Shown here: piece after piece, positions 338-27,113 of the stretch
Numbering within the stretch: position 1 is the stretch's first letter
Layout: every line of letters starts with the position of its first letter
Assembly (NCBI GenBank): GCA_035701265.1
Contig: DASSNU010000015.1
Location: 8,393 to 72,392, forward strand
Length of the DNA: 64,000 bases
Origin: Gemmatimonadaceae bacterium
Lineage (GTDB): Bacteria > Gemmatimonadota > Gemmatimonadetes > Gemmatimonadales > Gemmatimonadaceae
Reading direction: 5' to 3'
Notes under the pieces: generated by a model
The model's database searches: none
The model's input: the letters and a program-made list of their open reading frames with translations, nothing else
Told to the model about the DNA's origin: nothing
Program-made: the position numbers and the translations under genes

Positions 338-344
338 GATCCCT

Positions 345-2805: not shown

Positions 2806-3824
2806 GCGGTGCTCCCGGCGAGAGAGATCGCCTCGCGCCGCGCCAGGTCCGCCGCGCCGGCCATGGTGAGGGAGAGGAGACCGCGCCGCGCGCGCTCCTC
2901 CTCCGCCACGCGCAGCACGGCGCGCAGGACGTCGAGGTTTTCCTGCTGGTGCGCGCCGAAGTTGTGCGGATGCCACCAGAGGTGACAGATGCGCCCCGTG
3001 CGCGCGGCCTCGCGAATGCGCCCGACCACGCGCTCGAAGCGCCGCCGCTCGAGAGAACGCGCGCGTGGCGCGTAGGGGCGGAGCAGCGCGGTGGCGCGCA
3101 CGTCGGCCAAACCGGAAGGTTGGGGAACCTCGTCCCACCGCTGCAGGTCGCTGCCGGGAGGGCCGGCGTAGCTGTCGAGGAGACGGGCGAGACGCTGCAC
3201 GCGTCCGTCGCTTTCGCGTGTATTTCGGAATCGCCACATCCACGAGAGCGGGTTGCCGCGATACACGTCAATGCCGTGGTCCAGCAGGATCACATCGTAC
3301 GCCGCGTCGCGTTGGTTGCGCGGAAACACGATGGAGCGCACTGGGGCGCCCCACGCCGCGGCGATCCGGCAGGCAGCGGCAAGATCCGCGCGGAACGCGT
3401 CCGCTGTCTGTCCGGGCTCGCCGCAGTAGTAGTGGGAGAACGTGTGTGTGCCCAGCTCCTGGTATGGCGTCTCGAGGATCCGGCGGACGAGGGACGGCGC
3501 GTAGTGGAGCGGATCGTCGTTCTCATCCGCGCCGAGTGGCTCGGCGTACGGATCCAGGTGCCGGTTGGCGTAGGCCGGGCGTGCGGTGGGGGAGTACGCG
3601 TGCAGCTCGTCACGAGAGCGAGCGAGGAGGAACCCCACCGTGGCCCAGGTGGCGGCGATCTGCGTTTTCTCGAAGAGCTCGAGCAGGCTCGGGATGACCT
3701 GCCTGGCGCCGAGGAGGTTCGCGTGATAGGGAGAGGTAGGGGTGTGCCGGTCGCGCACTCCCCAGTGGAGCTCGAAGTCGAGGGAGAGGACCAGGGCGCC
3801 TGGGAGGGCGAGCTGGCGGTTCAC
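2802..3824 (-). CDS. Polysaccharide deacetylase-family protein (CE4-like)
   Basis: 340-aa ORF with LSLDFELHWGVRD near the N-terminus and THTFSHYY. Its size and context match deacetylases found in EPS loci. Both ends are coupled to neighbouring genes (4-nt overlaps). Confidence 0.65.
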   Translation of the reverse strand: MNRQLALPGALVLSLDFELHWGVRDRHTPTSPYHANLLGARQVIPSLLELFEKTQIAATWATVGFLLARSRDELHAYSPTARPAYANRHLDPYAEPLGADENDDPLHYAPSLVRRILETPYQELGTHTFSHYYCGEPGQTADAFRADLAAACRIAAAWGAPVRSIVFPRNQRDAAYDVILLDHGIDVYRGNPLSWMWRFRNTRESDGRVQRLARLLDSYAGPPGSDLQRWDEVPQPSGLADVRATALLRPYAPRARSLERRRFERVVGRIREAARTGRICHLWWHPHNFGAHQQENLDVLRAVLRVAEEERARRGLLSLTMAGAADLARREAISLAGSTA

Positions 3825-8440: not shown

Positions 8441-8465
8441 CCTGGAGGTGCCCAACGGCCACGGG

Positions 8466-9341
8466 TCACTGTTCGTAGCCCCACGTGCGTGCTTGCTGAG
8501 CCACCATCGTCCAGAGTCGTTGTTGTGTAGCACGCGGCATCTTGTGTCGCCAATCCTCCGCGCGCGCTGAGGTGACGAACCGTGCGGCGATCTCGCCTAC
8601 GAACGACGGCCGATCGGACGACGCGAACTCCGCCACCTGCGCACCCACGGAGCGCGGATCCTTCACCACGTCTTCGTATCGCACCGTAAGCGCAGTGTAA
8701 CCGTTGGCGATGGCGCCCTCGATGCACTGCATTTCCCGACACCACAATTCCGCTGCCAAGGTTAGATGATCTTCGTCGGAGGCGGCCAAGGCATTCGGTG
8801 TTTCACCGCCGCGGAACCACAGTGGCGTGTGCGGCCACCATTGCACCCGAGTCAAGGAGCGTGCAACCGCAAGTGGGTGCCTGACGACGTGGAGAAAACG
8901 GACATCTACGTCCGGCAGACTCGCGAGGACGCGGATCCGTCGGCCGTTCCGCGTGTTCTTGTTGAGGAACACGCGATTCCCTCGGGCGAGCTTCCGAATT
9001 GCGCGAGAGACACGCTCCACTTCCGCGCTGGAAATGTCATTCGGAGCCAATTCACCCGTCGTCGCGCCCGCAAACCTCGGTAGCTGCCGATCCCACCATA
9101 CGTATGCCTCCGATGGTGATAGCCAGCGGGAGCGCCTCTTCCCGTGCGCCATGCGCGTCGCATGATCATGAACCGCGATGCGGTTGATGAGTCGACTCAC
9201 ACCGACATCAGCCTCCACACGACTGATCCAACGGAGATTCGGCGATACGGCGAGCATGTCGTACACCATCGTCGTGCCGGACCGGCCGACTCCGATGACG
9301 AAAACTGCGCGCGCGATTCCTCGGTGTCGCGACACTCTCAA
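8466..9341 (-). CDS. Sulfotransferase-family protein
   Basis: 291-aa ORF. VFVIGVGRSGTTMVYDML matches the 5'-PSB P-loop of PAPS-dependent sulfotransferases. A downstream RxxxS-like region reads VRHPLAVARSL. Confidence 0.7.
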   Translation of the reverse strand: MRVSRHRGIARAVFVIGVGRSGTTMVYDMLAVSPNLRWISRVEADVGVSRLINRIAVHDHATRMAHGKRRSRWLSPSEAYVWWDRQLPRFAGATTGELAPNDISSAEVERVSRAIRKLARGNRVFLNKNTRNGRRIRVLASLPDVDVRFLHVVRHPLAVARSLTRVQWWPHTPLWFRGGETPNALAASDEDHLTLAAELWCREMQCIEGAIANGYTALTVRYEDVVKDPRSVGAQVAEFASSDRPSFVGEIAARFVTSARAEDWRHKMPRATQQRLWTMVAQQARTWGYEQ

Positions 9342-10345
9342 TGACCCTTCAGTCGAAACGCCGTACGGAAGACGGTGGATACCGATGGGGCAGCGCCGGG
9401 CGCGCCAAGGAATCTATGACGCCGGGCGAGTCCATCCACCACCGCCAAAGTCCCATACGCCAGTGCTTTCCATGCTGCACGCGGCCGGATCGGAATAGAG
9501 AGCAGCGGTTTGGCAATTCCGCGAAGGGCTCCCTGGAGTACCGCGATCCGGGATGAACCGAAGCGCGTCTGCAGGGAAATCAAGTTGCGGAGCCCGTAGT
9601 AACGCCTCAGCGTCGGCAGGGATTCGACCAGTAGGCGGGGGTGCTGGTGAAGACGAACGGACTTCTCAGGTCCCAACACACGATCATCTTCCAGGGACAA
9701 GAGAGTCCACCCTTGCGCCCTCAAGTGCATGCCGAGACCAAGCTCCTCGAACCCCCAAAACATGGTCTGCACCCAATCCGGTAGGTCCAGCAGAGCTGCG
9801 AGACGATAGACGGGGCAGTATCCACCATGGAGCGAGCTGACCTCTACCACGGCCTCTGTTGGTAGCTTCTCTGGGCGCTTCGTCAGCATTCTCCTCGTGT
9901 CAAAGACCGACCCACGATGGCCAACCCCTGCAATCCGCCGCCCGCCCAGTTTTGCCTCGGCGTCCAACAATGCCCGCACAGCGCGCTCGACGCACTGTCT
10001 ATCCCGGAACGGGTCGTCGTCGTCCAATAGAACGACAAGCTGATTCTGAATATCGGATGTCGTCGCGAGGTATTCCGCGGCCAGGGGGATCGCGCCAGCG
10101 GGTCCAAGATTCTTCTGGGTCCTGATCACGTGGATTCTGCTTGCAAGCGGCAGCGCAGTTGGATCGAATGGATCAGTTCCGACATCCACCACGACAAACG
10201 TGTTTGGCGTCAGAGTTTGGTCGACGCAACTCTGTACAACCTCGCACGCGAGATGCGGGCGATTGTGCGTTACCAACACGCCGGTGAGGATGAGCTGTTG
10301 CACGTTCCTCGCTGCGATGGCACCCGTTCCGTTGCTCTGGAGCAC
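9338..10345 (-). CDS. GT2-family glycosyltransferase
   Basis: 335-aa ORF with LTGVLVTHNRPHLACEVVQSCVDQT, VVVDVGTD and VLLDDDDPF (a DxD region). It starts at a GTG. A 4-nt overlap couples it to the sulfotransferase gene. Confidence 0.7.
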   Translation of the reverse strand: MLQSNGTGAIAARNVQQLILTGVLVTHNRPHLACEVVQSCVDQTLTPNTFVVVDVGTDPFDPTALPLASRIHVIRTQKNLGPAGAIPLAAEYLATTSDIQNQLVVLLDDDDPFRDRQCVERAVRALLDAEAKLGGRRIAGVGHRGSVFDTRRMLTKRPEKLPTEAVVEVSSLHGGYCPVYRLAALLDLPDWVQTMFWGFEELGLGMHLRAQGWTLLSLEDDRVLGPEKSVRLHQHPRLLVESLPTLRRYYGLRNLISLQTRFGSSRIAVLQGALRGIAKPLLSIPIRPRAAWKALAYGTLAVVDGLARRHRFLGAPGAAPSVSTVFRTAFRLKGH

Positions 10346-10628
10346 CCGTTATTGCTGATTACGCAACCGCTGCACGCAGCACCGCCTGTGGCGTCATGTC
10401 CTCGGGCATCCGTAGATTGCCCAGCCATACGGGTGCCTGCGTAAGTACCATCGCACATTGGGACGGTGCAAACGTTTTCGGAAGCCGCACCGAACATGAG
10501 CCGCAGCACCGGCTGGTGGGATATTCCGCAACTGGTGCAAAGTTGACGTTCCGGAGGGCGGAGGCCCACCGACACTTCGACCAGCAGCCTTTTTCTGCGC
10601 CATCTTAGAGACGACTCAAGGAGTGAGC

Positions 10629-11333
10629 ATGCGTTTCGTCGTTACCGGCACCGGGCGATCTGGTACGGGATACGCCGCGAAGCTTTTCAACGCAGCCGGA
10701 CTCAGGTGCGGCCACGAAGATGTCTTTACAGACAAACCTGGCCTATGGGATTCGGCGGCCCCGCGCCAAGGGCTCGTCGCACGGGCAAAGGAGCCACTTG
10801 GGCGTGCCAAGGAGGAGCTGCGCCGACGGCGCACGCACTTCGAAGGAGATGCGTCTTGGATGGCCGTGCCGCGTCTGGCAAGATTCAAGGGCGTGTCCTT
10901 CCTGCAGCTCCGCCATCCTATCCCCGTCATTAGGAGCTTTATGGGGACGAAGTTCTTCTCGAATCCACTTGAACATCGCGCGCAACGCCGATTTGCGAGT
11001 GCACATTTTGAAATTACCGGCGACGATATTCGCGACGCCATGCGGTGGTGGACCTTCTGGAACGGCCTCGCAGCTGCTCATGCCACCATGGTTTATCGCC
11101 TCGAAGATATGGGCGAGCCGCTGTTCACTGAAATCTTGCGTAAGCTGGGCGTCGAGACGCCGGCCGACCGCGCGCGCGTTGCGCTAAGTACGGTCGCCGG
11201 CGGCGTGAACTCCTCACGAGAGCGAGGGATTACTCCAGGTGCGATCACGTTCGAAGATCTACCAGATGGTGAAGACAAGGCTGAGCTATTCCGAGCGGCC
11301 GTCGCGTGGGGATACGACCCGGAGGACAGCTAG
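10629..11333 (+). CDS. P-loop protein, possibly a second sulfotransferase-like enzyme
   Basis: MRFVVTGTGRSGTGYAAKLF resembles the sulfotransferase PSB loop. ATG 10629 is preceded by AAGGAG with a 5-nt spacer; the track start at GTG 10623 is less likely. It is the only plus-strand gene in the left arm. Confidence 0.45.
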   Translation: MRFVVTGTGRSGTGYAAKLFNAAGLRCGHEDVFTDKPGLWDSAAPRQGLVARAKEPLGRAKEELRRRRTHFEGDASWMAVPRLARFKGVSFLQLRHPIPVIRSFMGTKFFSNPLEHRAQRRFASAHFEITGDDIRDAMRWWTFWNGLAAAHATMVYRLEDMGEPLFTEILRKLGVETPADRARVALSTVAGGVNSSRERGITPGAITFEDLPDGEDKAELFRAAVAWGYDPEDS

Positions 11334-11475
11334 GTTCTGCGCGTGGTGGCCGGAACTTCAACAGATGTCGCGGCGGTAGCCTGTAGTTGGTGGCCAACGC
11401 GGTGGGCCGCTTGAGCACGCGGTTCTGAGGCGGCCAAGTCCCGAGCGCTTCCAGACCACCGGCGTTGCGGCACGT

Positions 11476-13332
11476 CTACGCCGCCCCTCCTGCCATTGCA
11501 CGGAATACCGAGCTCGAGCCTATCAATTCGTCGTACGTTCCCGACTGCACGATGCGTCCCTTGTCCAGCATATAGATCGCGTCGCAGTCCCGGACGGAAC
11601 TGAGCCGGTGCGCGATCATGACGAGCGTCTTGGCACGTGCGATGTTGTGAATCGCCTCCATGACAGCAGCCTCGGTGATCCCGTCCAGCGCACTCGTTGC
11701 CTCATCGAAGATGATGAGCTCCGGATCGTTGTAGAGTGCACGGGCGATTCCGATGCGCTGCCGCTGTCCACCACTCAAGCGGACGCCCCGCTCCCCCACC
11801 ACCGTATGATACCCGTCGGCAAGCGAGCCGACCGCCTCATGCAGGTTGGCGATCTTCGCGGCACGCTCCACAGCGGCCATGTCGATTTCATCGTCCGGCA
11901 TTCCGAACGCGATGTTTCTCGCGAGCGTGTCGTCACACAAAAAAATGTGTTGCGGGACGTAGCCGACGAGCCGTTTCCATCCCGGAAGCATCGCGGCGTT
12001 CACGGGCGCCCCATCCACCAGGACCTGCCCCTCCTGTGGCACAAGCAACCCGAGGAGGACATCCACGAGCGTGGTTTTGCCAGACCCGGTCGCGCCGACG
12101 AGCGCAATCTGGCCGTTCTTCGGCACCACAAGGTCAATACCTTCGAGTGCGGGCGTGCTGCATTCGGGATACCGAAAGGTCACCTTGCGCAGCTCGATCG
12201 CTCGCGTGAACGCGAGCGCTGACGCTCCCTTCTGCGGTAATGCGATTCTCTCCGGCACAGAGGCGACCGGTGGGTGCCGGTTCGGCTCCAGCAGGTCAGC
12301 GTGCAACACATGCAACGCCGCTCGATTGAAGCGCAACGACGTCACGCCGAGGAACACCTGCTGCAGCGCAGGCATCATCCTGTATCCAGCGAACGCGAAG
12401 AGGCTCACGATCGGCAGTATGTGCGTCACGTTCCGCCCAGCCATCAGGGACAGCAGGATAATGACCAGCGCGCCCCCGAACGCCACGGGCTCCATAACGT
12501 AGCGAGGAACCGCCGACACAATCTGATTGTTCGCCATGTGCCGGGAGAACAGCGCTGATGGTCCGGTGAACCGCCGGAGGAAATGATCCTCGCGCCCCGT
12601 CACTTTGAGTTCTTTGATGCCACCGAATGCTTCCGCGGCCGTCTTGAACCGGAGTGTGTTTGCGTGCAGGCGCTCGCGGCCAATGCGCCCCTGACGCCGA
12701 CGTACCCCGAGATAGATCACACCGTACGCGCCGCCGAACCCGAGACCGATGGTAACCGCCAATCGCACATCCACGACAACAAGCAATGCGATAAGAGCGG
12801 TCACCATTACTGCTCTTGCCAACGCATTCAACACCGGGATCAGAATGCCGGTGATAACGGAGTTTACCTCACCCAGAATGTTCTTCGAGAGATCCGACGT
12901 GTTGCAGTTGAGGAAGTAGACGTATGGCTGCGACAAGTACTTGCGGAGTAGGCGTACGGAGAGCGAATGGTTCTTGTTCCAGACCAAGCGAAGCGTCAGC
13001 CACGTCGTGAGCGCTGACAGTACGTTGTTCACCAGAATGAGGATGAGGACGCCGAAGCCAACCGCGATCACGAAATGCTGCATGTTCGTGAAATGGAACA
13101 TGGCATAGACGCGACTGAGCACGCGATGACGTGTCACGACGGTCGGGTCCGCGACCAGCGCCATGAACGGCATGATCGACGCCACCCCGGCCATCTGAGC
13201 GAGCGCGGTGACGACGATGACGCACAAGAGCGCCAATAACCCAAGGCGCTCTCGACCCTCGAAAAGGTCCAGGATCTTGCGGAGGTCGGCTAGCATGCCG
13301 GCCCCGGATTTGGTCGTCGCATGCCGGACCAT
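11476..13332 (-). CDS. ABC exporter, fused permease + ATPase (MsbA/type I exporter-like)
   Basis: The N-terminal half has six hydrophobic segments. The C-terminal NBD carries Walker A (GATGSGKTT), the signature motif (LSGGQRQRIGIARAL) and Walker B (LIIFDEATSALD). An alternative start is ATG 13296 (MLADLRKIL). Confidence 0.9.
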   Translation of the reverse strand: MVRHATTKSGAGMLADLRKILDLFEGRERLGLLALLCVIVVTALAQMAGVASIMPFMALVADPTVVTRHRVLSRVYAMFHFTNMQHFVIAVGFGVLILILVNNVLSALTTWLTLRLVWNKNHSLSVRLLRKYLSQPYVYFLNCNTSDLSKNILGEVNSVITGILIPVLNALARAVMVTALIALLVVVDVRLAVTIGLGFGGAYGVIYLGVRRRQGRIGRERLHANTLRFKTAAEAFGGIKELKVTGREDHFLRRFTGPSALFSRHMANNQIVSAVPRYVMEPVAFGGALVIILLSLMAGRNVTHILPIVSLFAFAGYRMMPALQQVFLGVTSLRFNRAALHVLHADLLEPNRHPPVASVPERIALPQKGASALAFTRAIELRKVTFRYPECSTPALEGIDLVVPKNGQIALVGATGSGKTTLVDVLLGLLVPQEGQVLVDGAPVNAAMLPGWKRLVGYVPQHIFLCDDTLARNIAFGMPDDEIDMAAVERAAKIANLHEAVGSLADGYHTVVGERGVRLSGGQRQRIGIARALYNDPELIIFDEATSALDGITEAAVMEAIHNIARAKTLVMIAHRLSSVRDCDAIYMLDKGRIVQSGTYDELIGSSSVFRAMAGGAA

Positions 13333-17976: not shown

Positions 17977-18194
17977 CGTGTGAGAGATAAGCTAACGGAG
18001 GGGAGATCTCGCTTCATCGAGACGCGGCGGGACGACGGGAGGCAACGGGGACGTGCGCGCTCCCCTCCCCCGCCAACGCGACATCGGTGCGAGGGAAGGA
18101 TGCCGGCCTCCCCGATCCGATGCCATTCCCCGCCGTTGTAGCCGCCAGCCTGAGGTACGGTCACCGGCACCCGCGCCGTGGCCCACCCTCCCAC

Positions 18195-18223
18195 ATTGAC
18201 GACTATGGTACAGCGTACTATAT
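18195..18223 (+). promoter_or_regulatory. Near-consensus sigma70-type promoter: TTGACG - 17 nt - TATATT
   Basis: TTGACG at 18195-18200, a 17-nt spacer, and TATATT at 18218-18223. It sits in an AT-rich patch just upstream of the conserved part of the toxin gene. The spacer contains ATGGTAC-agc-GTACTAT, an imperfect inverted repeat. Confidence 0.5.
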
Positions 18224-18231
18224 TCTACGGC

Positions 18232-18573
18232 GTGCCCGACTGGCACGGGATCGAGTTCATCCATCTGCCCAGCTATCGCCGGTCTGCCGAAGTGCTGATC
18301 GATGATGAGGAGCAGCGGACGCTCGAGGAGCGGCTGGTGCACGATCCGGAGACCGGGCCGGTAATGCCCGGCACGGGCGGCGTGCGCAAGCTTCGCGTCG
18401 CGATGCCCGGGCGCGGGAGACGCGGCGGCGCGAGAGTGATCTACTACTATCGCAGAAGCGCGCAGCGGATCTACCTGATCGTCGCGTACGCCAAGGGTCG
18501 GAAAGACGATCTGACCCCTGCGGAATGCGCGACGATGCGGAGGCTCACTACGCTACTCGAAGGGGAGACATGA
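18232..18573 (+). CDS. RelE/HigB-superfamily toxin (the GGxRKxR...RGGxRvIYYY type)
   Basis: GTGGVRKLRVAMPGRGRRGGARVIYYYRRSAQRIYLIVAYAKGRKDDLTPAE matches the conserved core of this toxin family. The track start (18178) lies upstream of the predicted promoter. GTG 18232 gives the family-typical length of about 113 aa. Confidence 0.75.
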   Translation: MPDWHGIEFIHLPSYRRSAEVLIDDEEQRTLEERLVHDPETGPVMPGTGGVRKLRVAMPGRGRRGGARVIYYYRRSAQRIYLIVAYAKGRKDDLTPAECATMRRLTTLLEGET

Positions 18574-18962
18574 CCACGCGCACGGTGGGAGAGGAGATCA
18601 TCGCGGGGCTGGAGGAAGCGCTCGCCTACGAGCGCGGCGAGCTGAAGGGGGTGAAGGTGACGCGCGCCACGCTCGCCACGCAACGCGCGGGCGTCGCGCC
18701 CGCGCCGAGCGTGGGCGCGCAGGGAATCATGGCGCTGCGCGAGCGGCTGCGGCTGTCGCAGCCCGTGTTCGCGGCGGCGCTCAACGTGAGCCCGGAGACG
18801 GTGAAGAAGTGGGAGCAGGGGACGCGCGATCCGGACGGCGCCGCGCTCCGTCTGCTCGAGCTGGCCGACGCTCACCCCGAGTGGATCATCGAGCGGATCA
18901 CCGCCGCGCCAGCGCGTACGCGATCACCGCGCGGGACAGCCCGACATTCTCGCCGTCGATGA
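18570..18962 (+). CDS. XRE-type HTH antitoxin (HigA-like) partner of the upstream toxin
   Basis: ATG 18570 overlaps the toxin stop (ATGA). The HTH reads LRERLRLSQPVFAAALNVSPETVKKWEQGTRDPDGAALRLL. The toxin-first gene order is typical of HigBA modules. The C-terminal tail extends into the duplicated segment described in the findings. Confidence 0.78.
   Translation: MTTRTVGEEIIAGLEEALAYERGELKGVKVTRATLATQRAGVAPAPSVGAQGIMALRERLRLSQPVFAAALNVSPETVKKWEQGTRDPDGAALRLLELADAHPEWIIERITAAPARTRSPRGTARHSRRR
18897..18933. repeat. Left copy of a 37-bp perfect direct repeat (atcaccgccgcgccagcgcgtacgcgatcaccgcgcg)
   Basis: Identical to 20029-20065. Weaker similarity extends upstream (18841-18896 versus 19939-20028). 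The minus strand of this copy encodes ...SRAVIAYALARR*, a duplicate of the C-terminus of the gene ending at 20030. Confidence 0.85.
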
Positions 18963-19019
18963 GCTCGTCCAGAAGCTCGCATCCGGATCGGCGAATCGCG
19001 TGCGAACGCGAGAACGTCC

Positions 19020-19271
19020 TTACGGATCGCACGTCTCGTCCCGTTCCCACCATCTGTCGGGCAAGTCGCGTTGTGCTATCTCGCACGGCACGAAGTCAAT
19101 GCGCACGACCGCATCCAGCGCCCGGGCGAGCTCGGCGAGAGTGGACAACCGTGGGTTGGCCGTGCCGGATTCGAGGCGCGCGATGGCGGGCTGCCTTGTG
19201 CCGAGTTGCTCCGCCAGCGCCTCCTGACTGAGACCGCGGCGCTGCCGGAGCCGCAGGACCGCTTCTGCCAC
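19020..19271 (-). CDS. XRE-type HTH antitoxin (second HigA-like protein)
   Basis: VAEAVLRLRQRRGLSQEALAEQLGTRQPAIARLESGTANPRLSTLAELARALD is a canonical Cro/C1 HTH. The start is taken at GTG 19271. The longer track ORF (155 aa) overlaps the toxin gene and has a low-complexity, basic N-terminus. Confidence 0.7.
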   Translation of the reverse strand: MAEAVLRLRQRRGLSQEALAEQLGTRQPAIARLESGTANPRLSTLAELARALDAVVRIDFVPCEIAQRDLPDRWWERDETCDP

Positions 19272-19326
19272 ATCGAACGAGGGCTGGCGCAGCCACTCCT
19301 TCAGGAAGGAAGCGCTACCGAGCCGC

Positions 19327-19764
19327 TCAGACAGGCGGGATCTCGACCTCTTGGAGCGAGTACGCGCCGCGCTCGAGGGCACCGATGAGCGTCGAGCAGC
19401 GGACGAGGTCTTGCGCGTCGCGTTTGTCACGTTTTTTCGAGACGGAATGGAGGAAGACGATACGCCGGTGTTCCCGGTCGGGTACAAAGAAGTACAATCG
19501 CCAGGGGCTGGGCTTGGCTTTCAGGACGTAGACGCCAACCGATCGCCCCTCGAACGTGCACTGGCCTAGCTTCTCGTAGCGCGGGCGCCCCTTCCCGCGT
19601 TCCGGAGGACATCCAGCCAGCCGCAGCAGGCGAAGCTGCCGCAGGATGGTGGCGAGCTCCCGATCGTTCGCGTCGCAGTAGGCGTCGCTGGATGGACGCC
19701 TGGTCCCCCGCACCACTTCGAGCAGTTGCCAACCGCCCGCCCGATCGGGAGGGGTATAACACAT
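19327..19764 (-). CDS. Gp49/HigB-like RelE-superfamily toxin
   Basis: GVYVLKAKPSPWRLYFFVPDREHRRIVFLHSVSKKRDKRDAQDLVRCSTL matches the y-R-l-y-F...iv-llh-f-KK pattern of phage Gp49-like toxins. It is followed by an HTH gene. Confidence 0.65.
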   Translation of the reverse strand: MCYTPPDRAGGWQLLEVVRGTRRPSSDAYCDANDRELATILRQLRLLRLAGCPPERGKGRPRYEKLGQCTFEGRSVGVYVLKAKPSPWRLYFFVPDREHRRIVFLHSVSKKRDKRDAQDLVRCSTLIGALERGAYSLQEVEIPPV

Positions 19765-20028: not shown

Positions 20029-20065
20029 ATCACCGCCGCGCCAGCGCGTACGCGATCACCGCGCG
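20029..20065. repeat. Right copy of the 37-bp perfect direct repeat
   Basis: Identical to 18897-18933. It overlaps the true 3' end of the nucleotidyltransferase gene. The flanking 19939-20028 is a degenerate copy of the 3' end of the HigA-like gene (LLALADAH... versus LLELADAH...). Confidence 0.85.
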
Positions 20066-21043
20066 CGGCGAGCCCTCGGCCAGCGCGCCGCCCGCGGCGA
20101 TGAGCCGGCGCGCGGCGTGGCGCCCCTGCACGCGGACGGCGATCTCCGCGCGGAGCCGCCCCACGCGCCGCACCGCGCGCCATGACGCCTCCGGCACGCG
20201 CGCAGCGGGCACGCGCGCGTCGAGCACGTGCGCCGCGCCCAGGAGCGTCTCCATGGCGCGGCGCTCCACGCTCGCGTGCACGAACGCCGAGACGCGCGCG
20301 AGGTCCACCTGCGGATCGCTCACCACTGCGGCCACGTCGATCACGTCGCGCAGCGTGTAGCGGAGCATCCGGCTGGCGGTCGCGTGCGCGAGCGTGTGCT
20401 CGGCCAGCGCGGCCGGCGAGGGGAGCCACACCGGCGCGCCGCCAACCTCCACCTCACGCGCGTCCTGCCAGATGTCGACGCGCGCTCCGTCGGCGCCGTG
20501 CCGCCGCGCGAGGCGCGTGTGAATCTCCACCGGCAGCCAGCCAGGGAGCGCGATGGCGTCCAGGTGGTGATGCCCGGGGATGTGTTCCACCACGGCGTAT
20601 CCCATCTCGCACTGCAGCGCGCGGTGCAGCAGCTCGGCGCCCGCGCGATCGTCGACCAGGAGGTCGATGTCATCCATGGTGCGCGAGGCCGCGGTGTGCG
20701 CGCCGGCCAGGAGACGCGCGGCGCCCTTGAGCGCCATCACGCGCACGCCGCATCGCGCAGCCAGCATGGCGATGCGCGCGAGCTGCGGCGCCACGCGGAG
20801 CGACTGGCCGAGCGCGAGCTGCGCGTCGTCCTTGAGCAGGGCGCGCACGTGCGCGGGAAGATCCAGCGCGTGTCCCGCGTCGAGCATCCACCCCCACACC
20901 GCGGGTCCGCACCGCTCGTAGCGCAGCACGCGGCGCCACCACGACGCGTCGGCGTCCGATGCGCGGCGCAGCACGGTGGCACCCGGCTGCTCGCGGCGCA
21001 CGGCGCTCGAGAGGAGATCGTGAATGGCGGAGGCGATGGACAT
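20030..21043 (-). CDS. Uncharacterised nucleotidyltransferase (NTP_transf_5 / PF14907-like)
   Basis: VRVMALKGAARLLAGAHTAASRTMDDIDLLVDDRAGAELLHRAL matches the KG...R..DiDlLV core of this family. The start is at ATG 21043 (MSIASAIH). The upstream part of the track ORF is Arg/Ser-rich junk. Confidence 0.7.
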   Translation of the reverse strand: MSIASAIHDLLSSAVRREQPGATVLRRASDADASWWRRVLRYERCGPAVWGWMLDAGHALDLPAHVRALLKDDAQLALGQSLRVAPQLARIAMLAARCGVRVMALKGAARLLAGAHTAASRTMDDIDLLVDDRAGAELLHRALQCEMGYAVVEHIPGHHHLDAIALPGWLPVEIHTRLARRHGADGARVDIWQDAREVEVGGAPVWLPSPAALAEHTLAHATASRMLRYTLRDVIDVAAVVSDPQVDLARVSAFVHASVERRAMETLLGAAHVLDARVPAARVPEASWRAVRRVGRLRAEIAVRVQGRHAARRLIAAGGALAEGSPRAVIAYALARR

Positions 21044-21074
21044 CGTGCGCGCGGAGTGCGGCGGTGCGCGAGCG

Positions 21075-21938
21075 CTACGGAACGAGGAACGCCGGCTGGC
21101 GATCGTCCTGCGAGCGCGCGAGCAGCACGCGGCGGCGGTGATCGGACACCGTGTAGGCCACCAGATCGGCGGCGCCGCTCGTGGGGACGAGCGCGCCCAC
21201 GCAGTACGACGCATCGCACGCGGGCTCTCCCATGTCCTGCGACTCGATCGGGAAAGCGTCCGTGGCACCGGTGCCCAGCGTCACCACGTGCAGCGCGTTC
21301 CCCACGCCGGGCGTGTAGACGATGCGCGTGCCGTCGGCGGTCCATGCCGGCTCGAAAGCGCCGCTCGCTTCGTGCGTCACCTGCTCGGCCGTTCCTCCGG
21401 CGGCGGCGACGACGAACACCTGCGACGTCCCCGTGCTCACCGAGGCGAAGGCGATCATCGAGCCATCGGGGCTCCACGCCGGCGACTGCTCCGGCACCGA
21501 CGCCGCGGATCCGGTGGCAAGGGCAGCCACGTTGGCGCCGCTCGCGTCCATCACGTACACGCGAACGATCCCGCTCCGATCGCTGGCGAACGCAACGCGT
21601 GAGCCGTCGGGTGAGAGGGCGGGAGCGAAGTCCGCCGCGGCGTTGGTGGTGAGACGCTGCACGTTCGCGCCGTCGTTCGCGGCAGTGTAGATCTCGCTGT
21701 TGCCATCACGATCGGAGGTGAAGACGAGCTTTCCGGCGGCGCTGTGCGGCTCGCTCTCGTTGCTCGTGGTCTCCGTGATGGGTGTGACGACGCCGCTCTC
21801 CGCATCGAGCGAGTAGAGCTGCGAGTGGCCGGCATCGTCGGTGGAGACGAAGACGATGGGCGCGAACGGCGGGAATGGCGGATCGCCGCCCGGACCGGCG
21901 CCGTCGCTGCACGCCAGGAGCACGGCGGCGGCGAACAT
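21075..21938 (-). CDS. TolB-like (PD40/WD40-like) beta-propeller lipoprotein, paralog 1
   Basis: MFAAAVLLAC is a lipobox-type signal. Repeated motifs follow: SPDGSRVAFASDRSG, VYVMDASGANV, SPDGSMIAFASV. Confidence 0.78.
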   Translation of the reverse strand: MFAAAVLLACSDGAGPGGDPPFPPFAPIVFVSTDDAGHSQLYSLDAESGVVTPITETTSNESEPHSAAGKLVFTSDRDGNSEIYTAANDGANVQRLTTNAAADFAPALSPDGSRVAFASDRSGIVRVYVMDASGANVAALATGSAASVPEQSPAWSPDGSMIAFASVSTGTSQVFVVAAAGGTAEQVTHEASGAFEPAWTADGTRIVYTPGVGNALHVVTLGTGATDAFPIESQDMGEPACDASYCVGALVPTSGAADLVAYTVSDHRRRVLLARSQDDRQPAFLVP

Positions 21939-22015
21939 CGCGATTCCCGCGCGCGAGCGTGCGACGCGCCATCCAGCGCCGCGTCCGCGACGCTCGTGCA
22001 ACGGTGCGCGATGCG

Positions 22016-22855
22016 TTACGCGAGACACGGTTCCTCCGCCACCGCTTCGGCGAGCGTGTGGGCCACGCGGTGTAGTTGCGCCGGCGAGTGCTCGAGCAGG
22101 CGCACCGGCACCGACTGCACCATGTGCGCGAGCAGGCGCAGGTGCGCGGCGGCGTGCCGGTCGTTCACCATCACCCAGCGCGACTGCCGCACGAGCGCGG
22201 CGAGTGCGTCGAGGGGGCGGAGGTGGTGCACGGCGTCGTGCGCGGCGAAGCGGACGAAGATGATCGCGGCGAGCGAAGCGGAGCGCGCGGTGTGCGCCGT
22301 CACCGGCATGCGGCGGCGCGGGTCGGCGACGTCGGCGGCGTGCGCCCAGCGTGCCAGCTCGGGAAAGTGATCGATGAGGGCGTCGCTCACGTGCAGCGGC
22401 TCGCGCCACGCGTGACAGCGTACCGCGTCCCCGTCCCGCTCCACCACCACGCCGTCATCGCCCAGCACGCCCCATCCCGCGCGCGCGAGCGCGTAGGTGA
22501 GCGTGGATTTTCCGCTGCAGCTGTCGCCGGCGAGGAGCCAGGCACGTCCGGTGGGATCCACCACGCCGGCGGCGTGCACGTGGTAGCGTCCGCGAGAGCG
22601 CAGCCGCTGGATGGCACCCGCGCGCGCGAGCACCTGTCGCGCTGCGCGCGATGCGCTCTCGAAGCCGGTTCCCCTCTCGAGCCGTCCGCCGCGAACGTGC
22701 AGCTCGGCGCCTTCCGTATCGTGACGGAGGTGCACCGTGTCGCCGCGCACGAGCCCGGTGACGGGGCCGAACTTCCAGGGGAGATCGGCGCCGCGTGGAG
22801 TGATGCTCTGTGCGGTGCGGGTGCGGCGAGCGGCTGCGCGCGACTGAGCGCGCAC
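22016..22855 (-). CDS. HPr kinase/phosphorylase C-terminal-domain-like P-loop protein (HprK-related kinase)
   Basis: HAAGVVDPTGRAWLLAGDSCSGKSTLTYALARAGWGVLGDDGVVV matches the HprK catalytic-domain P-loop region. GTG 22855 overlaps the TAG of the upstream small ORF (TAGTG). Upstream of that point, G/C-ending codons in this frame fall to 23/42. Confidence 0.72.
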   Translation of the reverse strand: MRAQSRAAARRTRTAQSITPRGADLPWKFGPVTGLVRGDTVHLRHDTEGAELHVRGGRLERGTGFESASRAARQVLARAGAIQRLRSRGRYHVHAAGVVDPTGRAWLLAGDSCSGKSTLTYALARAGWGVLGDDGVVVERDGDAVRCHAWREPLHVSDALIDHFPELARWAHAADVADPRRRMPVTAHTARSASLAAIIFVRFAAHDAVHHLRPLDALAALVRQSRWVMVNDRHAAAHLRLLAHMVQSVPVRLLEHSPAQLHRVAHTLAEAVAEEPCLA

Positions 22856-23022
22856 TAGCAGGGCGGATCGGGGGGTACGCCGCTGCACGTCTGGCCGGCC
22901 TGCAGGAGATAGAGCCCGGTGAAACCGGAGACGTTGAGCGTGAGCTCGGTGAGCGATGCGTGTCGCACCAGCGCCGGGGGGCACCAGGGGCGTGGCCTCT
23001 TCTCGATTGTACTGATTGTCAT
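22855..23022 (-). CDS. 55-aa small protein, candidate modified-peptide precursor: MTISTIEKRPRPWCPPALVRHASLTELTLNVSGFTGLYLLQAGQTCSGVPPDPPC
   Basis: 45 of 55 codons end in G/C, against 23 of 42 in the overlapping kinase frame. A GGGGAAG Shine-Dalgarno-like element lies 6 nt before the ATG. The stop overlaps the kinase start. I recognised no homolog. Confidence 0.5.
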   Translation of the reverse strand: MTISTIEKRPRPWCPPALVRHASLTELTLNVSGFTGLYLLQAGQTCSGVPPDPPC

Positions 23023-23146
23023 GAGGTCTTCCCCTGTGGTGGGCGCCGCGCCCCGAGCAAGAACTGCTCCGATCACGTATCTGACGATCCAGGGCCCCTT
23101 TGGAGTAACAGTCTGGGTGTCACACCAGGGGGTGAGATGTGAAGGC

Positions 23147-23181
23147 GCCTGGCAGGGGCCGGTACTGCGCCCCCACCAGGC
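23147..23181 (-). terminator. GC-rich stem-loop between TolB-like paralog 2 and the small ORF (possible terminator or attenuator; no U-tract)
   Basis: Arms gcctggcaggggc (23147-23159) and gcccccaccaggc (23169-23181) pair 6+5 bp around a 2-nt mismatch, with a 9-nt loop. Confidence 0.25.
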
Positions 23182-23208
23182 GGTCCCCCCATTCGAGTCG
23201 AGCTATGA

Positions 23209-24234
23209 CTAGCGGTGCAGGATCGCGGGCTGGCGGGCGGTGCCGAAGGCCGGTACGACGTCGGCCGGTGTGCCAGCGGCTGCCGCGTAGAAGTCCACGT
23301 CGGAGCCCGCTGCGGTGGTGACCGCGGCCACGCACCCATCCGCCGAGCACGACGGCTCGCTCACGCCGAGCGTCGCGGTGGCGTATTCGGCCACGGCTTG
23401 CGTGGAAACGTTCACGGAGCGAAGGCGCAGCCCACCCGCGTCGGCCACGTAGACGATCGAGCTGCCGTCGGCGCTCCACGTGGGGAGGAAGGCGCCGTTG
23501 AACTCGTGCGTCACCTGCACGGCGGATCCGCCGGCGGCGGGGACGACGAACACCTGCGACGTGCCGGTGCGGACGGAGGTGAAGGCGATCATCGAGCCGT
23601 CGGGGCTCCAGGCGGGCGCGTCTTCCGGCGTCCAGCTCTGCGAGCCGGTGGCGAGCTCCACCTGGTTGGCGCCGGTGCTGTCCATCACGTAGAGGCGTGC
23701 GGTGCCGCTCCGGTTGCTCACGAAGGCCACGTGCGCGCCGTCGGGGGAGAGCGCCGCCTGGTCGTTGGTGCCGGCGGTGGTGAGCTGCGCGACCGACTGG
23801 CCGGCGACATCGGTGATGAAGATCTGCGCAACGCCGTTCCGATCGGAGGTGAAGACGATCCGTCCCGCTGCGCTACTCGGCGCGAAGTCGTTCGCGTTGC
23901 TCGTCATGAGCCGCGAGACGGTGCCGCCGCTGTAGATGTAGAGCTGGTCGCTCCCGCTGGCGTTGGAGACGAAGGCGAACTCGAGCGATGCAGGCGCCAC
24001 GGTGGAGTCCTGCTTCGGCTTCTTGCTGCCCTTTTCACCGCCGTTGGACGGCGAGTTGCCGCCCTTGGCGAGCTCGCCCGTCTGGGTGAGTCCGGTGCCG
24101 AGCTGGTTGGAGCAGGCGCTTGCGCTGGCGATCAGTGTGACGATTGCAATCGCGAGCACCTGGCGGCGCGCGCGTGAGCCGTTGGTGCGCGCCGAGCGAT
24201 TGTCCGTCGCTGCACTCTGGCGGGAGTTCGACAT
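23209..24234 (-). CDS. TolB-like (PD40) beta-propeller lipoprotein, paralog 2
   Basis: The signal plus lipobox reads RRQVLAIAIVTLIASASAC. Repeats include SPDGAHVAFVSNRSG, LYVMDSTGANQ and SPDGSMIAFTSVRTGTSQVFVV. It is collinear with paralog 1, including the C-terminal C-x4-C and RQPA motifs. The start is at ATG 24234. Confidence 0.78.
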   Translation of the reverse strand: MSNSRQSAATDNRSARTNGSRARRQVLAIAIVTLIASASACSNQLGTGLTQTGELAKGGNSPSNGGEKGSKKPKQDSTVAPASLEFAFVSNASGSDQLYIYSGGTVSRLMTSNANDFAPSSAAGRIVFTSDRNGVAQIFITDVAGQSVAQLTTAGTNDQAALSPDGAHVAFVSNRSGTARLYVMDSTGANQVELATGSQSWTPEDAPAWSPDGSMIAFTSVRTGTSQVFVVPAAGGSAVQVTHEFNGAFLPTWSADGSSIVYVADAGGLRLRSVNVSTQAVAEYATATLGVSEPSCSADGCVAAVTTAAGSDVDFYAAAAGTPADVVPAFGTARQPAILHR

Positions 24235-24768
24235 GGGGGGGTCTCCTGGAGTGGTTCGTCGTGCTGCTGTTTGGATCGAGCGTGGCCCGATCGCGCCTTT
24301 CTGACCCAAAAGACTGGCCCAGTTTCCAAACTGTCACATTATTTGTCACTCATGAGGTCTAGCTGATATTGGAAAGGAATTTGTGGGCATAGTGACTGAA
24401 AACGTGCGGTTTGGCGGGGTGTCGGCGCGTTTTGAGACGGGATGGGCGAGCGCCCGCGATTCCGGGGGTGATCTATCGGAGCGATCGGACTGGCGGCGGT
24501 GATACGATCGTCTTCCAGACTTCACCGCCCTGTCCATTTCCACAGGGCCGCCAAGTACCACGGGGCCGCCAAGCGCGCACGGCGGCACATGCCGCCATCC
24601 GATCGACCGTCTCCTCATCCACTCTCGACACCTCCCACTTTGAATGCCGCGTTCGGCAGGCTTCGACGCCGGGCGATGCAGATTTCAACGCCGCGTTCGG
24701 CAGGCGGCTGGTGGTGCCATTCCGTCCTCCACTCGACCCTCCTCTCCTGCAGCACCATGTAATCAAGT

Positions 24769-24919
24769 GATATCGCCCGCGATACCATGCGAACAGGATC
24801 CCAGGTGATGAGCTGTGATCAGATGGTATCGCCCGCGATACCATACGATGACGATGCCATGTGATGAGGTGGTATCGCCCGCGATATCACTTGGATGAGG
24901 TGGTATCACCCGCGATATC
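24769..24919. repeat. Four copies of an 18-bp palindromic element G(G/A)TATC(G/A)CCCGCGATA(C/T)C
   Basis: Copies lie at 24769-24786, 24825-24842, 24871-24888 and 24902-24919. The arms GGTATCGC and GCGATACC are exact complements. The last two copies sit in a 31-bp tandem unit (gatgaggtggtatc.cccgcgatatcacttg). Confidence 0.85.
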
Positions 24920-24960
24920 ACTTGATCGCAGGGCGCGGGAGACGGAGGGGTGCAGGGTGG

Positions 24961-25205
24961 TCCGAAGCGGAGAGCGGGGTCCGAAGCGGAGAGCGGGGTC
25001 CGGAGAGGAGAGCGGGGTCCGGGGCGCCGCCAGGCCTCTGGGGCGCCGAGAAGCCTCTGGGGCGCCGAGAAGCCTCCGGGGCGCCGAGAGGCCTCCGGAG
25101 CGGAGAGAGGGGTTGTGAGAAGAGAGGGCGAACCGGGGAGGAGCGGCTGCCCGGACAGGAGAGGGTAGCCCGGACAGGTGAGGGTAGCCCGGACAGGAGA
25201 GGGTG
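24961..25205. repeat. Three adjacent families of 19-bp tandem repeats (3-4 copies each)
   Basis: Family A (tccgaagcggagagcgggg) starts at 24961, 24980 and 24999. Family B (gggcgccgagaagcctctg) starts at 25022, 25041, 25060 and 25079. Family C (gcccggacaggagagggta) starts at 25149, 25168 and 25187. A 19-nt period is not a multiple of 3. Confidence 0.9.
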
Positions 25206-25561
25206 GTTGTGACAGGGTGGACTGGTGACGAGGCGGGCGCAGACGGGCGCCAGGTAGGCGATCGCCGCCCCTTCCGCCATGTCTTCCGCGCCTCACGCCG
25301 GGAGTCGGGTGCATGCCGCCACCAGATGCGTGACCGGAGGGATATGCAAAGGGTCAGTGTCGCGCCCCGCAGGGGAGCCGCCCCTCCCGCTCACGCACTC
25401 GGCACACCCCTCACAACTCCCCTCGAACTCGAGCACCGAGAGTGGCGCCACGCGGGAGAGCTCCTCACACAGTCCCGCCCCAACGATCGAGCGGCCGTCC
25501 CATCTCGATCGAGATGGGACGGCCGCCGGTTGGGCTCCCCCAAGGGAGCGTGGGTTCCGTG

Positions 25562-25738
25562 GAGTGGAGGCCTGGGGTTCCGGGCCGTGCTGCTGTACAG
25601 TGCGCCTATCCCTTCCTGCTTGCTCTTCCTGTGCCGCGTTCCAGTCCTACTTGCCTGTCCTTTACCGCGTTCCCGAAAAGACCGGTGAAAGGTTGACTGA
25701 TGAGTGGAGGCCTGAGGTTCCGGGCCGTGCTGCGTACA
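25562..25738. repeat. About 38-bp direct repeat, two copies 140 bp apart (gagtggaggcctg(g/a)ggttccgggccgtgctgc(t)gtaca)
   Basis: Copy 1 is 25562-25599 and copy 2 is 25702-25738. They differ by one substitution and one 1-nt indel. Both lie just downstream of the lipoprotein gene stop at 25773. Confidence 0.8.
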
Positions 25739-25772
25739 TCCATGGTACCTGCTGGCGCGTCACCGCCGAGTG

Positions 25773-27113
25773 TTACGGCTGCGTCACGCCGATCTCGTAC
25801 GTCACGTTCGACCAGAGCGTGCTCATGGTCTTCCGCGACCCGTTGTTGAAGAACCCGAACATGAAGCTCCGCGAGTGGCTCACGTCTCCCTGCGACGTCC
25901 AGGGGTCGTTCGGCAGCGCGCTGTAGCTCACCGTGAGCGCGGGGGTGGTGGAGAAGCCGATGAAGAGCTGCACCGACGTGTTCCCGTTCTTCACGATGCG
26001 CAGCTGATCGTTGCTCGTGAACGACGACGTGCTGATCTGGCCGCCCACCTGGTTCAGATTCCCGTCAATGAAGTACGTGTTCTTCTGTCCGATGGCCAGG
26101 AGGATCAGCTTGTTCTGGTCCGTCATCCCGATGAGCCCGACCTGTTGATCGCTGTTGGCGCCGTACGAGCCACTGTATGAGAAGGCGATGTACGCGTTCT
26201 GGCTGGTGCCCAGCGAATCGCTGCGGTAGTAGAGCAGCTCCGCCTGGTCGCTGCTGCGGTTCGTGTCCTCCACCTTGAGGCAGCGCGAGGCGAAGAGCGG
26301 GCAGCCGGAGGTGACGATGCTCCCCCTGGTGGTGCCGACGTCCACCGTCTTCCAGAACGGCTCGGTGCCGTTGTCGGGGAGCGAATCGGGGCGGTAGTCC
26401 ACCTTCCAGCGCGACTCCTGCGGCGCCTGCCATGCGGCGCTCAGCGCGATGCCGAACGAGTACCGCTTGATCGCCGTGTCCACCACGAAGGTGATGTTCT
26501 GCGCTCGCGAGAGGTCGGTGCCGGAGTTGGCCACGCCGTCGCTCTTTGCCAGGACGTCGTTGAAGAACCAGTACGGCTGCGCGGTGGGCGTGGTGAACGA
26601 CGCCGACCCGTGCTGCTGCGAGACGGTGATCCGGCAGCCGGCCGTGTTGGCCACGCAGCCGGAGGTTGCCACCGGCATGGTGGTGAGGAACGCGAACTCG
26701 CCGAGCGTGTCGCGCGCCGTCGCGGCATTCCCCGCCTGCGAGGTGCCGACGGCGAAGCTCAGCAGGTTCTCCACGCGCATGGTCATCGGCAGCTTCCACT
26801 GCCCCTGCGCGTTGATCGTCGCCGGCGACGCCATGGCGAAGCGGAAGGCAGCCTGCTGCTTGGTGCCGTAGATCTGCCGGTTGCTGCCGGCGCTCGCCGA
26901 CATGTTGTCGATCGGCGTGGTGGTCACCGTGCCGCTGGCGACGTCCACGTCTACGCGATACATGCCGGTGATCTCCTGCTCGGCCGCAGGGGTGCCGGGA
27001 AGATCGGGCTGCGTGAGCGGCGCGACGATGGAGTCGCTGCTGCAAGCGGTGCTCGCCAGGAGGGCGACCATCGCTGTAACGATACCGGCACGCTTCAGAG
27101 TCAGGCTGAACAT
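25773..27113 (-). CDS. Secreted lipoprotein of unknown function
   Basis: 446 aa. MFSLTLKRAGIVTAMVALLASTAC is a signal peptide with a lipobox. The mature part is Ser/Thr/Asn/Gln-rich and Arg-poor, with beta-rich character. I recognised no catalytic motif. Confidence 0.72.
   Translation of the reverse strand: MFSLTLKRAGIVTAMVALLASTACSSDSIVAPLTQPDLPGTPAAEQEITGMYRVDVDVASGTVTTTPIDNMSASAGSNRQIYGTKQQAAFRFAMASPATINAQGQWKLPMTMRVENLLSFAVGTSQAGNAATARDTLGEFAFLTTMPVATSGCVANTAGCRITVSQQHGSASFTTPTAQPYWFFNDVLAKSDGVANSGTDLSRAQNITFVVDTAIKRYSFGIALSAAWQAPQESRWKVDYRPDSLPDNGTEPFWKTVDVGTTRGSIVTSGCPLFASRCLKVEDTNRSSDQAELLYYRSDSLGTSQNAYIAFSYSGSYGANSDQQVGLIGMTDQNKLILLAIGQKNTYFIDGNLNQVGGQISTSSFTSNDQLRIVKNGNTSVQLFIGFSTTPALTVSYSALPNDPWTSQGDVSHSRSFMFGFFNNGSRKTMSTLWSNVTYEIGVTQP

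Follow-up and report, generated by a model that had tools for sequence, protein, structure and literature searches.

A precursor-like peptide with a lasso-type leader and an HprK-like kinase in Gemmatimonadaceae: a candidate RiPP-like cassette with no lasso cyclase found nearby

Within a 64,000-nucleotide stretch of a soil Gemmatimonadaceae genome (hereafter the window; GC ~70%), we analyzed a block of five open reading frames (ORFs) that run in the same direction on the minus strand and span positions 20030-24234: a small ORF of 55 codons, an HprK-like kinase gene, an NTP_transf_5 nucleotidyltransferase gene and two genes for TolB-like beta-propeller proteins. Judged by sequence comparison, the small ORF is a conserved gene that opens with a lasso-type leader, and its neighbor encodes a homolog of a kinase-like gene of a lasso-type cluster. 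The parts of this cassette are recognizable variants of known machinery for peptides that are synthesized ribosomally and modified after translation (RiPPs). With the proposed chemistry included, we lean, by a modest degree, toward reading it as a Gemmatimonadaceae-specific RiPP-like system that would have descended from phosphorylated lasso clusters and that has no lasso cyclase.

A first-pass annotation, made from the letters of the window, had delimited the five genes and proposed that they form an uncharacterized peptide-modification system. The ORF listing bore out its coordinates, and the proposal itself is supported by the comparisons reported here. The tagged genes are, by exact-sequence look-up, records of one Gemmatimonadaceae metagenome-assembled genome on a 372-kb contig. 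The same look-up returned exact protein records for four of the five ORFs (those of 55, 279, 341 and 337 residues), and TolB-like protein 1 is recorded with another start only.

A conserved precursor-like peptide and its kinase

The small ORF (VFK13_07980; 22855..23022, minus strand) encodes 55 residues plus a stop (MTISTIEKRPRPWCPPALVRHASLTELTLNVSGFTGLYLLQAGQTCSGVPPDPPC) and has a Shine-Dalgarno-like AGGGGA upstream. With a small-ORF profile, we obtained one match per locus, adjoining the kinase gene or one gene off, in ~25 non-redundant Gemmatimonadota loci (23-90 bits, the matches being six-frame ORFs at the same position). The same profile retrieved 97 called peptides of 47-134 residues from 5.8 billion proteins, none of which carried a Pfam domain or an informative name. 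When the window gene was compared with that of its closest relative, locus L001, 23 codons were identical, 17 differed synonymously and 14 non-synonymously; the intergenic DNA upstream of the small ORF was barely alignable between the two. On these sequence comparisons, the 55-residue ORF is a conserved gene and is under purifying selection. A chance ORF in 70% GC DNA was ruled out by the conservation across loci, the codon comparison and the exact database record. Peptide and kinase genes co-occur wherever upstream DNA was available, the exception being the loci that we describe below as type C (L002, L004), in which a hidden Markov model (HMM) search for the peptide gene gave no match. With that exception, orthologs of the kinase did have, as expected, a neighboring small ORF whose N-terminal half is conserved and whose C-terminal half varies.

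The peptide divides into a predicted leader of residues 1-29 (22936..23022, minus strand) and a predicted core of residues 30-55 (22858..22935, minus strand; NVSGFTGLYLLQAGQTCSGVPPDPPC), the placement of the cleavage site between them being inferred. Lasso leaders carry the motif YxxPxL at positions -17 to -12 and a Thr at -2 (PMC10368454). In the window peptide, W13, P16, L18, T28 and L29 fall at -17, -14, -12, -2 and -1, and the first four match the YxxPxL...T(-2) register of lasso leaders exactly. The pattern is kept in 95-96 of 96 family peptides: Trp at -17, Pro at -14 and Leu, Ile or Val at -12 are present in all 96 and Thr or Ser at -2 in 95, with Ser or Thr at -7 in 88/96 and Gln at -1 in 84/96. 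By this positional correspondence, the N-terminal half of the ORF is a lasso-type leader; the lasso_leader_L3 model NF033521 scored 16.9-17.5 bits on it, just under the cut-off of 19. We also observed that the leader ends in T-L rather than the usual T-Q in seven of the 96 peptides, including those of the window and L065. All seven fall in two core subfamilies, and the examined loci of both (window, L001 and L065) have neither a PqqD nor a B2 gene.

The cores, by comparison with the leaders, are variable and fall into several unrelated subfamilies, among which exactly two Cys residues are found in 75/96 members. The window core likewise has two Cys, one of them its last residue, and a Ser at +3. 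To form the macrolactam of a lasso peptide, a core requires Gly, Ala, Ser or Cys at +1 together with Asp or Glu at +7 to +9, a combination found in only 4/96 family cores. The window core, which begins NVSGFTGLY, has neither element: its +1 residue is Asn, and none of the residues at +7 to +9 is acidic. A lasso topology was ruled out on this core composition.

The kinase-like protein encoded next to the peptide (VFK13_07975; 22016..22855, minus strand; 279 residues) contains H94, a P-loop at G110-T118 (GDSCSGKST) and the pair D133-D134. Its AlphaFold2 model, built with 30 homologs, had a mean predicted local distance difference test score (pLDDT) of 91.8, and the best Foldseek matches to this model in the PDB were ATP-dependent phosphoenolpyruvate carboxykinase (PEPCK) and HPr kinase/phosphorylase (HprK/P), with E ~1e-6. 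According to the model, the protein has the HprK/PEPCK fold, with the P-loop, catalytic His and Asp-Asp constellation of both enzymes. Residues H94, G110, G115, K116, S117, T118, D133 and D134 were invariant in the family alignment. They correspond to the H-G-G-G-K-S-D-D motif of lasso kinases described for BsfK (PMC10368454), with Cys113 in place of the middle Gly in the window protein. This substitution lies at codon 113 (22516-22518), where nearly all relatives read GxSGxGKST. Cys113 recurs in P0125, which comes from an independent assembly, and so does not stem from an error of assembly.

The earlier identification of this protein as HPr-kinase-C-like was upheld by fold and not by family thresholds, its scores for PF07475 Hpr_kinase_C (16.2 versus 33.3 bits), TIGR04352 and TIGR04355 all lying under the cut-offs. 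TIGR04352 was nonetheless the top-scoring NCBIfam model, at 31.5-43 bits, and a precomputed match to the Pfam family PF27840 'ScmC' is on record for the window protein, this match being weak or faint in relatives. Similarity to HprK/P is confined to the P-loop region (TIGR00679, 15.5 versus 240 bits), the N-terminal domain is a different one, and there is no HPr or phosphotransferase system (PTS) context. Identity as the HprK/P of the PTS was ruled out by the curated scores and this context. Coupling to the small ORF was also upheld in part: the GTG of the kinase overlaps the TAG of the small ORF in the window, but conservation of the kinase begins only at W27 and the two genes do not overlap in L001, which leaves the kinase start and strict translational coupling uncertain.

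The kinase has at least 284 close relatives, and among the database matches and the close genome loci every name that includes an organism is Gemmatimonadaceae or Gemmatimonadota. A HMMER scan of 1.84 billion representatives, which returned 2,877 proteins at E <= 1e-10, delimited a discrete kinase clade of ~12 full-length clusters at 50% identity, all scoring above 280 bits. Beyond this clade scores fall to ~128 bits, reached by HprK-like proteins of 300-360 residues. One of the ten proteins sampled from this nearest outgroup (P0282, 507 residues) is a lasso B2 protease fused to an HprK-like kinase. At a more distant locus, L059, the gene order is PqqD, an Asn-synthase/lasso-cyclase-like gene, a kinase and B2, and the alignment of our kinase family profile with the L059 kinase-like gene by hhalign had a probability of 98.5% (E 3.9e-15). 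On the strength of this alignment, the window protein is homologous to the kinase-like gene of a lasso-type cluster. The first-pass annotation had found the combination of genes impossible to map to any described system. Given the lasso-type leader and this homology, it can instead be mapped to the tailoring module of phosphorylated lasso clusters, without the cyclase.

Related loci and known systems

Asn_synthase, PqqD, B2, radical SAM and YcaO genes were not found in the window by a Pfam search covering most large ORFs, and tblastn with the proteins of related loci revealed no hidden PqqD, B2 or radical SAM gene. With HMMs built from the relatives and run against all six frames, the best E value was 13 for PqqD and, for B2, 0.039, a match that is noise inside a glycosyltransferase ORF. 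These three kinds of search agree with the original observation that the window contains no cyclase, leader peptidase, PqqD, radical SAM or YcaO gene.

We then compared ~45 loci that carry close relatives of the kinase, drawn from genome and metagenome collections and from contig look-ups, with flanks that are partly annotated. In none of these partly annotated loci did a lasso cyclase turn up next to the kinase. The sole Asn_synthase domain seen in them belongs to a 1011-residue polysaccharide-locus protein of L063, encoded 7 kb downstream, in which it is fused to glycosyltransferase domains; a cyclase-like gene adjoins only the distant homolog of L059. Around the close relatives, PqqD occurs in many cases and B2, radical SAM or NTP_transf_5 in some, but these relatives do not lie within a full set of genes for a lasso peptide or any other known RiPP, in keeping with the first-pass proposal.

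Four architectures were distinguished. Type A (L006, L017-L019, L032, L035, L044, L064) combines the peptide, a 446-residue lipoprotein, a radical SAM/SPASM protein, the kinase, a lasso-type PqqD, a lasso B2 (65 bits versus a cut-off of 33), NTP_transf_5 and a TolB-like protein; this joining of lasso leader, radical SAM, kinase, PqqD, B2 and NTP_transf_5 without a nearby cyclase is a hybrid architecture. The peptide cores of type A loci (L019, at 7485-13250; L006, L017, L032, L035 and L064) were seen to end in ...IPCSQGFCP or ...PGSVTVFP. Type B, with ~20 loci, consists of the 446-residue lipoprotein, peptide, kinase, PqqD and TolB-like genes. Seven of its members (L007, L008, L010, L014-L016 and L034) share a gene pair upstream of the 446-residue lipoprotein gene, encoding an 850-residue DUF5117 + DUF4953 Met-zincin and a familyless protein of 480-590 residues; whether this secreted-protease pair belongs to the system or is a matter of synteny is unclear. 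In type C (L002, L004 and others), a 785-residue propeller lipoprotein is encoded with the kinase, NTP_transf_5 and PqqD. In L002 (7556-9913) and L004 (7670-9979), this lipoprotein gene, for a product of 770-800 residues, directly precedes the other three. The lipoprotein contains many propeller-like repeats of the form WAVG...G.I.HYNG.W, resembles the 446-residue lipoprotein in its N-terminal part and matched no family above threshold.

Type D, found in the window and L001, has no PqqD, B2 or radical SAM gene and comprises the 446-residue lipoprotein gene, a repeat tract, a TolB-like gene, peptide, kinase, a second TolB-like gene and NTP_transf_5. The proteins of the two loci are syntenic and 67-71% identical. 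In an unbootstrapped neighbor-joining tree the window and L001 formed a clade that is sister to one of the PqqD-containing type B groups, a position that suggests a secondary loss of PqqD in their lineage. PqqD is also absent from L013, L042, L063 and L065, the last of which (139-3116) encodes a radical SAM protein, kinase, peptide and PD40 propeller, with no PqqD or B2. Versions without PqqD repeatedly adjoin a polysaccharide locus with a UDP-N-acetylglucosamine (UDP-GlcNAc) 2-epimerase (Epimerase_2) and glycosyltransferases, an adjacency that may be inherited synteny.

Among described systems, we compared the cassette with the phosphorylated and phosphoglycosylated lasso clusters of paeninodin (PadeK), ThcoK, SyanK, Bradymonas bsf (BsfK/BsfN) and pseudomycoidin (PsmK/PsmN). 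It shares with them the [Y/W]xxPxL...T(-2) leader, an HPr-kinase homolog, encoded beside the precursor, with the H...GxxGxGKS...DD pattern (apart from Cys113 in the window protein) and a PF14907-type nucleotidyltransferase, and its relatives carry the lasso-type PqqD (B1) and B2. It differs from them in having no cyclase and no ABC exporter, in a core that cannot form the macrolactam and in the lack of a conserved C-terminal Ser; the window additionally has neither B1 nor B2. The cassette kinase is also shorter (~253-280 residues, versus 300-360 for the nearest outgroup), and its propeller and lectin-like lipoproteins, like the radical SAM/SPASM proteins of some relatives, have no counterpart in described lasso clusters.

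Two uncharacterized systems show partial likeness. The HPr-rel-A system pairs a TIGR04352 kinase with the TIGR04353 PqqD chaperone, includes a PF14907 nucleotidyltransferase and is not known to have a cyclase. The pairing of an HprK-like kinase with PqqD is common to both, but the Gemmatimonadaceae kinases score far below the 200 bits of the TIGR04352 equivalog, form a separate clade (the ~12 clusters on the upper side of the drop from >280 to ~128 bits) and, in the window, are without PqqD. The SynChlorMet system consists of ScmC (TIGR04249/PF27840), the PqqD-like ScmD and the radical SAM/SPASM proteins ScmE and ScmF. The cassette shares with it the PF27840 match, and type A relatives likewise join an ScmC-like protein, PqqD and radical SAM/SPASM. 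In contrast to SynChlorMet, however, the kinase-like protein scores 25.7 versus 125 bits for TIGR04249, the relatives have one radical SAM protein rather than two and the window has none, and the cassette has an identified precursor family with a lasso-type leader. In the literature that we searched, SynChlorMet, HprK-related kinase and TIGR04352 were not mentioned, PF14907 came up once in an unrelated context, and a search for Gemmatimonadota, at the level of listings, brought up no description of the cassette. Relative to that literature, the lasso leader with tailoring enzymes and no nearby cyclase, the versions without a RiPP recognition element (RRE), the pairing with radical SAM/SPASM, the lipoprotein partners and the unannotated precursor family all appear to be new.

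Proposed pathway and competing explanations

In described pathways, homologs of HPr kinase phosphorylate linear lasso precursors, and PsmN adds hexoses to the phosphate (PMC8498205). The acceptor is a defined Ser of the linear precursor, either the C-terminal Ser or Ser3. For BsfK it is core Ser3; the reaction depends on the leader and is sped up by B1 (PMC10368454). Reasoning from these systems, we consider that the likeliest course of events in the cassette would be phosphorylation of the precursor followed by decoration through NTP_transf_5. The kinase would bind the leader and transfer phosphate from ATP to a Ser or Thr residue in the peptide, the candidates being S32 (+3), T45 and S47 of the core and the conserved S23 and T28. 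NTP_transf_5 would then place a sugar or a nucleotide-derived group on the phosphate, in the manner of PsmN. The product would be linear, possibly with a C46-C55 loop, and would act together with the co-conserved envelope lipoproteins, namely the TolB-like propellers and the lectin-like 446-residue protein. With PqqD presumably lost from the window version, the leader would be recognized directly by the kinase or through a PqqD supplied in trans. A C-terminal Ser acceptor such as that of PadeK was ruled out, as the residue is not conserved.

Several observations weigh against this pathway. The kinase-like protein falls below all curated cut-offs (TIGR04352, 31.5 versus 200 bits), and the G113C exchange in its P-loop may impair or alter nucleotide binding. 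The window has neither PqqD nor B2, and efficient phosphorylation by BsfK needs B1 (PMC10368454). The hydroxyl residues of the core offer no obvious common acceptor: a C-terminal Ser occurs in 3/96 family peptides and a Ser or Thr at +3 in 20/96, and no hydroxyl residue is invariant among the cores. NTP_transf_5 is absent from several related loci and is therefore not core to the system. Finally, no transporter is conserved in the cassette that would connect its product with periplasmic lipoproteins.

The distribution of hydroxyl residues can also be accommodated if the small protein is not a precursor at all but an uncleaved substrate of the HprK-like kinase that is phosphorylated, in the manner of HPr, on S(-7), T(-5) or T(-2) and thereby controls the envelope lipoproteins or the polysaccharide locus. 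Near-invariant hydroxyls are found only in the conserved N-terminal segment, at -7 (88/96) and -2 (95/96); B2 is missing from many loci and PqqD from several, no exporter is conserved, and versions without PqqD repeatedly lie beside the Epimerase_2/glycosyltransferase polysaccharide locus. However, the register of the leader coincides exactly with that in lasso precursors, the B2, PqqD and radical SAM/SPASM genes of type A are typical RiPP maturation machinery, and a hypervariable C-terminal half with paired Cys is typically seen in a RiPP core and not in a regulator. The polysaccharide adjacency, as noted above, may be mere inherited synteny. We consider such a regulatory switch unlikely. Improbable, too, is that the block no longer functions and is what remains of a fuller cluster whose PqqD, B2 and radical SAM genes were lost and whose P-loop was damaged, as the missing genes, the G113C exchange and the toxin-antitoxin (TA) modules and repeat tract that flank or interrupt the block would allow. 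All five ORFs are intact and syntenic with a relative that is only 67-71% identical, the peptide gene has kept its leader motif through 17 synonymous versus 14 non-synonymous codon changes, and other independent lineages, listed above, have no PqqD either. A Walker A motif, moreover, requires only GxxxxGK[ST], which also speaks against decay.

It is, in our view, highly improbable that the block is the precursor and tailoring part of a true lasso locus whose cyclase, B1 and B2 lie elsewhere in the genome. Such a locus would account for the lasso-type leader, enzymes such as the kinase and nucleotidyltransferase are known to tailor lasso peptides, the distant homolog in L059 adjoins a cyclase-like gene, and our inspection of this genome was confined to 64 kb. 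Against it stand a core that begins with Asn and has no Asp or Glu at +7 to +9, a family in which only 4/96 cores are lasso-compatible and the lack of a cyclase beside the kinase in the ~45 close, partly annotated loci, where the lone Asn_synthase domain, that of L063, is part of a glycosyltransferase fusion 7 kb away.

The RiPP-like reading that we favor could be taken one step further. We tentatively entertain, with less than even confidence, that the family constitutes an undescribed RiPP class in which an HprK-like kinase, guided by a lasso-type leader, produces linear, Cys-looped phospho- or phosphoglycosyl-peptides, with NTP_transf_5, radical SAM/SPASM and B1/B2 joined variably, lipoproteins as partners and, in the lineage of the window, leader reading without an RRE. 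Lasso-type leaders, B1/B2 and HprK-like kinases are usually regarded as parts of the lasso pathway, and here the same module is kept in ~45 Gemmatimonadota loci without an adjacent cyclase being found, at times paired anew with radical SAM/SPASM. If this reading is correct, the half of a RiPP pathway that does the tailoring can become an independent pathway, a soil phylum with hardly any cultured members would make a family of phosphorylated linear peptides, and RRE-less reading of the leader would be a new mode of recognition for this kinase family. The peptides also provide a concrete precursor family for the long-uncharacterized ScmC/HprK-related kinase group.

Nucleotidyltransferase, envelope lipoproteins and genomic surroundings

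The last gene of the block (20030..21043, minus strand) encodes a 337-residue nucleotidyltransferase of the NTP_transf_5 family (PF14907, 87 bits versus a cut-off of 31.2, E = 2e-24), as the first-pass annotation had recognized. It keeps the motif KGA...R.M.DIDLLV and, downstream, (V/I)E(I/L)H (E-x-H), both of which are shared with its relatives; this agrees with the nucleotidyltransferase pattern G-[GSA]...D-x-D. The gene occurs in loci of types A, C and D.

The two TolB-like proteins, correctly described as duplicated paralogs, are ~48-49% identical PD40 beta-propellers and probable lipoproteins. Propeller 1 (21075..21938, minus strand; 287 residues, with an uncertain start codon) has the lipobox LLAC and a PD40 score of 97.5 bits; propeller 2 (VFK13_07985; 23209..24234, minus strand; 341 residues) has the lipobox ASAC and a score of 98.8 bits. 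Their scores for the TolB equivalog TIGR02800 (164.5 and 145.2 bits) are under its cut-off of 343, and they are thus TolB-like rather than orthologs of TolB. True TolB, of ~430 residues with an N-terminal TolB domain, was ruled out: both are propeller-only proteins, and there are no adjacent tol-pal genes. An ortholog of propeller 2 lies at the same position in L001. The idea that duplicated propellers characterize the system holds for the window and L001 only, a single TolB-like propeller being the norm of the family. In most loci with downstream sequence the propeller gene follows the kinase (and PqqD, or NTP_transf_5 in type A); none does so in type C.

Upstream of the block, VFK13_07990 (25773..27113, minus strand) encodes the 446-residue protein, a probable lipoprotein with a lipobox and no Pfam or NCBIfam family match. 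Its homologs are encoded beside the peptide and kinase genes in ~24/44 loci, and it is probably an accessory member of the unit. The AlphaFold2 model, for which four homologs were found, had a pLDDT of 63 overall and 70-90 in the C-terminal domain, a beta-sandwich with weak matches to concanavalin A (ConA)-like lectin or glycan-binding folds; we regard its assignment as ConA-like or lectin-like as tentative. That the peptide and kinase are consistently paired with exported lipoproteins of the propeller and lectin-like kinds may point to a role connected with the envelope and not to that of a classical antibiotic.

Between the gene for propeller 2 and that for the 446-residue lipoprotein lies a repeat-rich non-coding tract of 1.46 kb (24310-25772, no strand), with no locus-tagged gene between VFK13_07985 and VFK13_07990. 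It contains four copies of a 20-nucleotide near-palindrome, TGGTATCGCCCGCGATACCA, and its variants (24768-24920), three tandem arrays of 19 nucleotides (24959-25204) and a perfect 36-nucleotide palindrome (25491-25526). The tract had no match in Rfam, and nothing useful came from scanning the region for Rfam families, promoters and terminators. The tract could be an operator array, a set of REP-like (repetitive extragenic palindromic) elements or an insertion remnant. On the other side of the block are two TA modules, RelE/HTH and Gp49/HTH, at 18.2-19.8 kb (18178-19764). The placement of the block in an accessory zone between TA modules and a repeat tract (24.3-25.8 kb) was therefore accurate.

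The rest of the window is largely devoted to polysaccharide biosynthesis and encodes glycosyltransferases, a sulfotransferase, ABC transporters, epimerases, a Bac_transf sugar transferase and a deacetylase/methyltransferase. The segment 3800-13500 has a GC content of 61-64%, versus ~70-74% elsewhere, and was probably gained by horizontal transfer as an island for polysaccharide modification. It encodes glycosyltransferases, a GNAT protein, a sulfotransferase (8466-9341) and an ABC exporter (11476-13332). Genes of the last two kinds are also known from some lasso clusters; those of this segment lie 7-11 kb from the cassette and are polysaccharide-related in appearance. Finally, the slot that separates the UDP-GlcNAc 2-epimerase gene from the cassette has the look of an insertion hotspot for accessory genes, its mobile defense or TA cargo differing between the window (18178-19764; RelE/HTH and Gp49/HTH) and L001 (13598-16336; an Eco57I-type methyltransferase, Fic and MazE).

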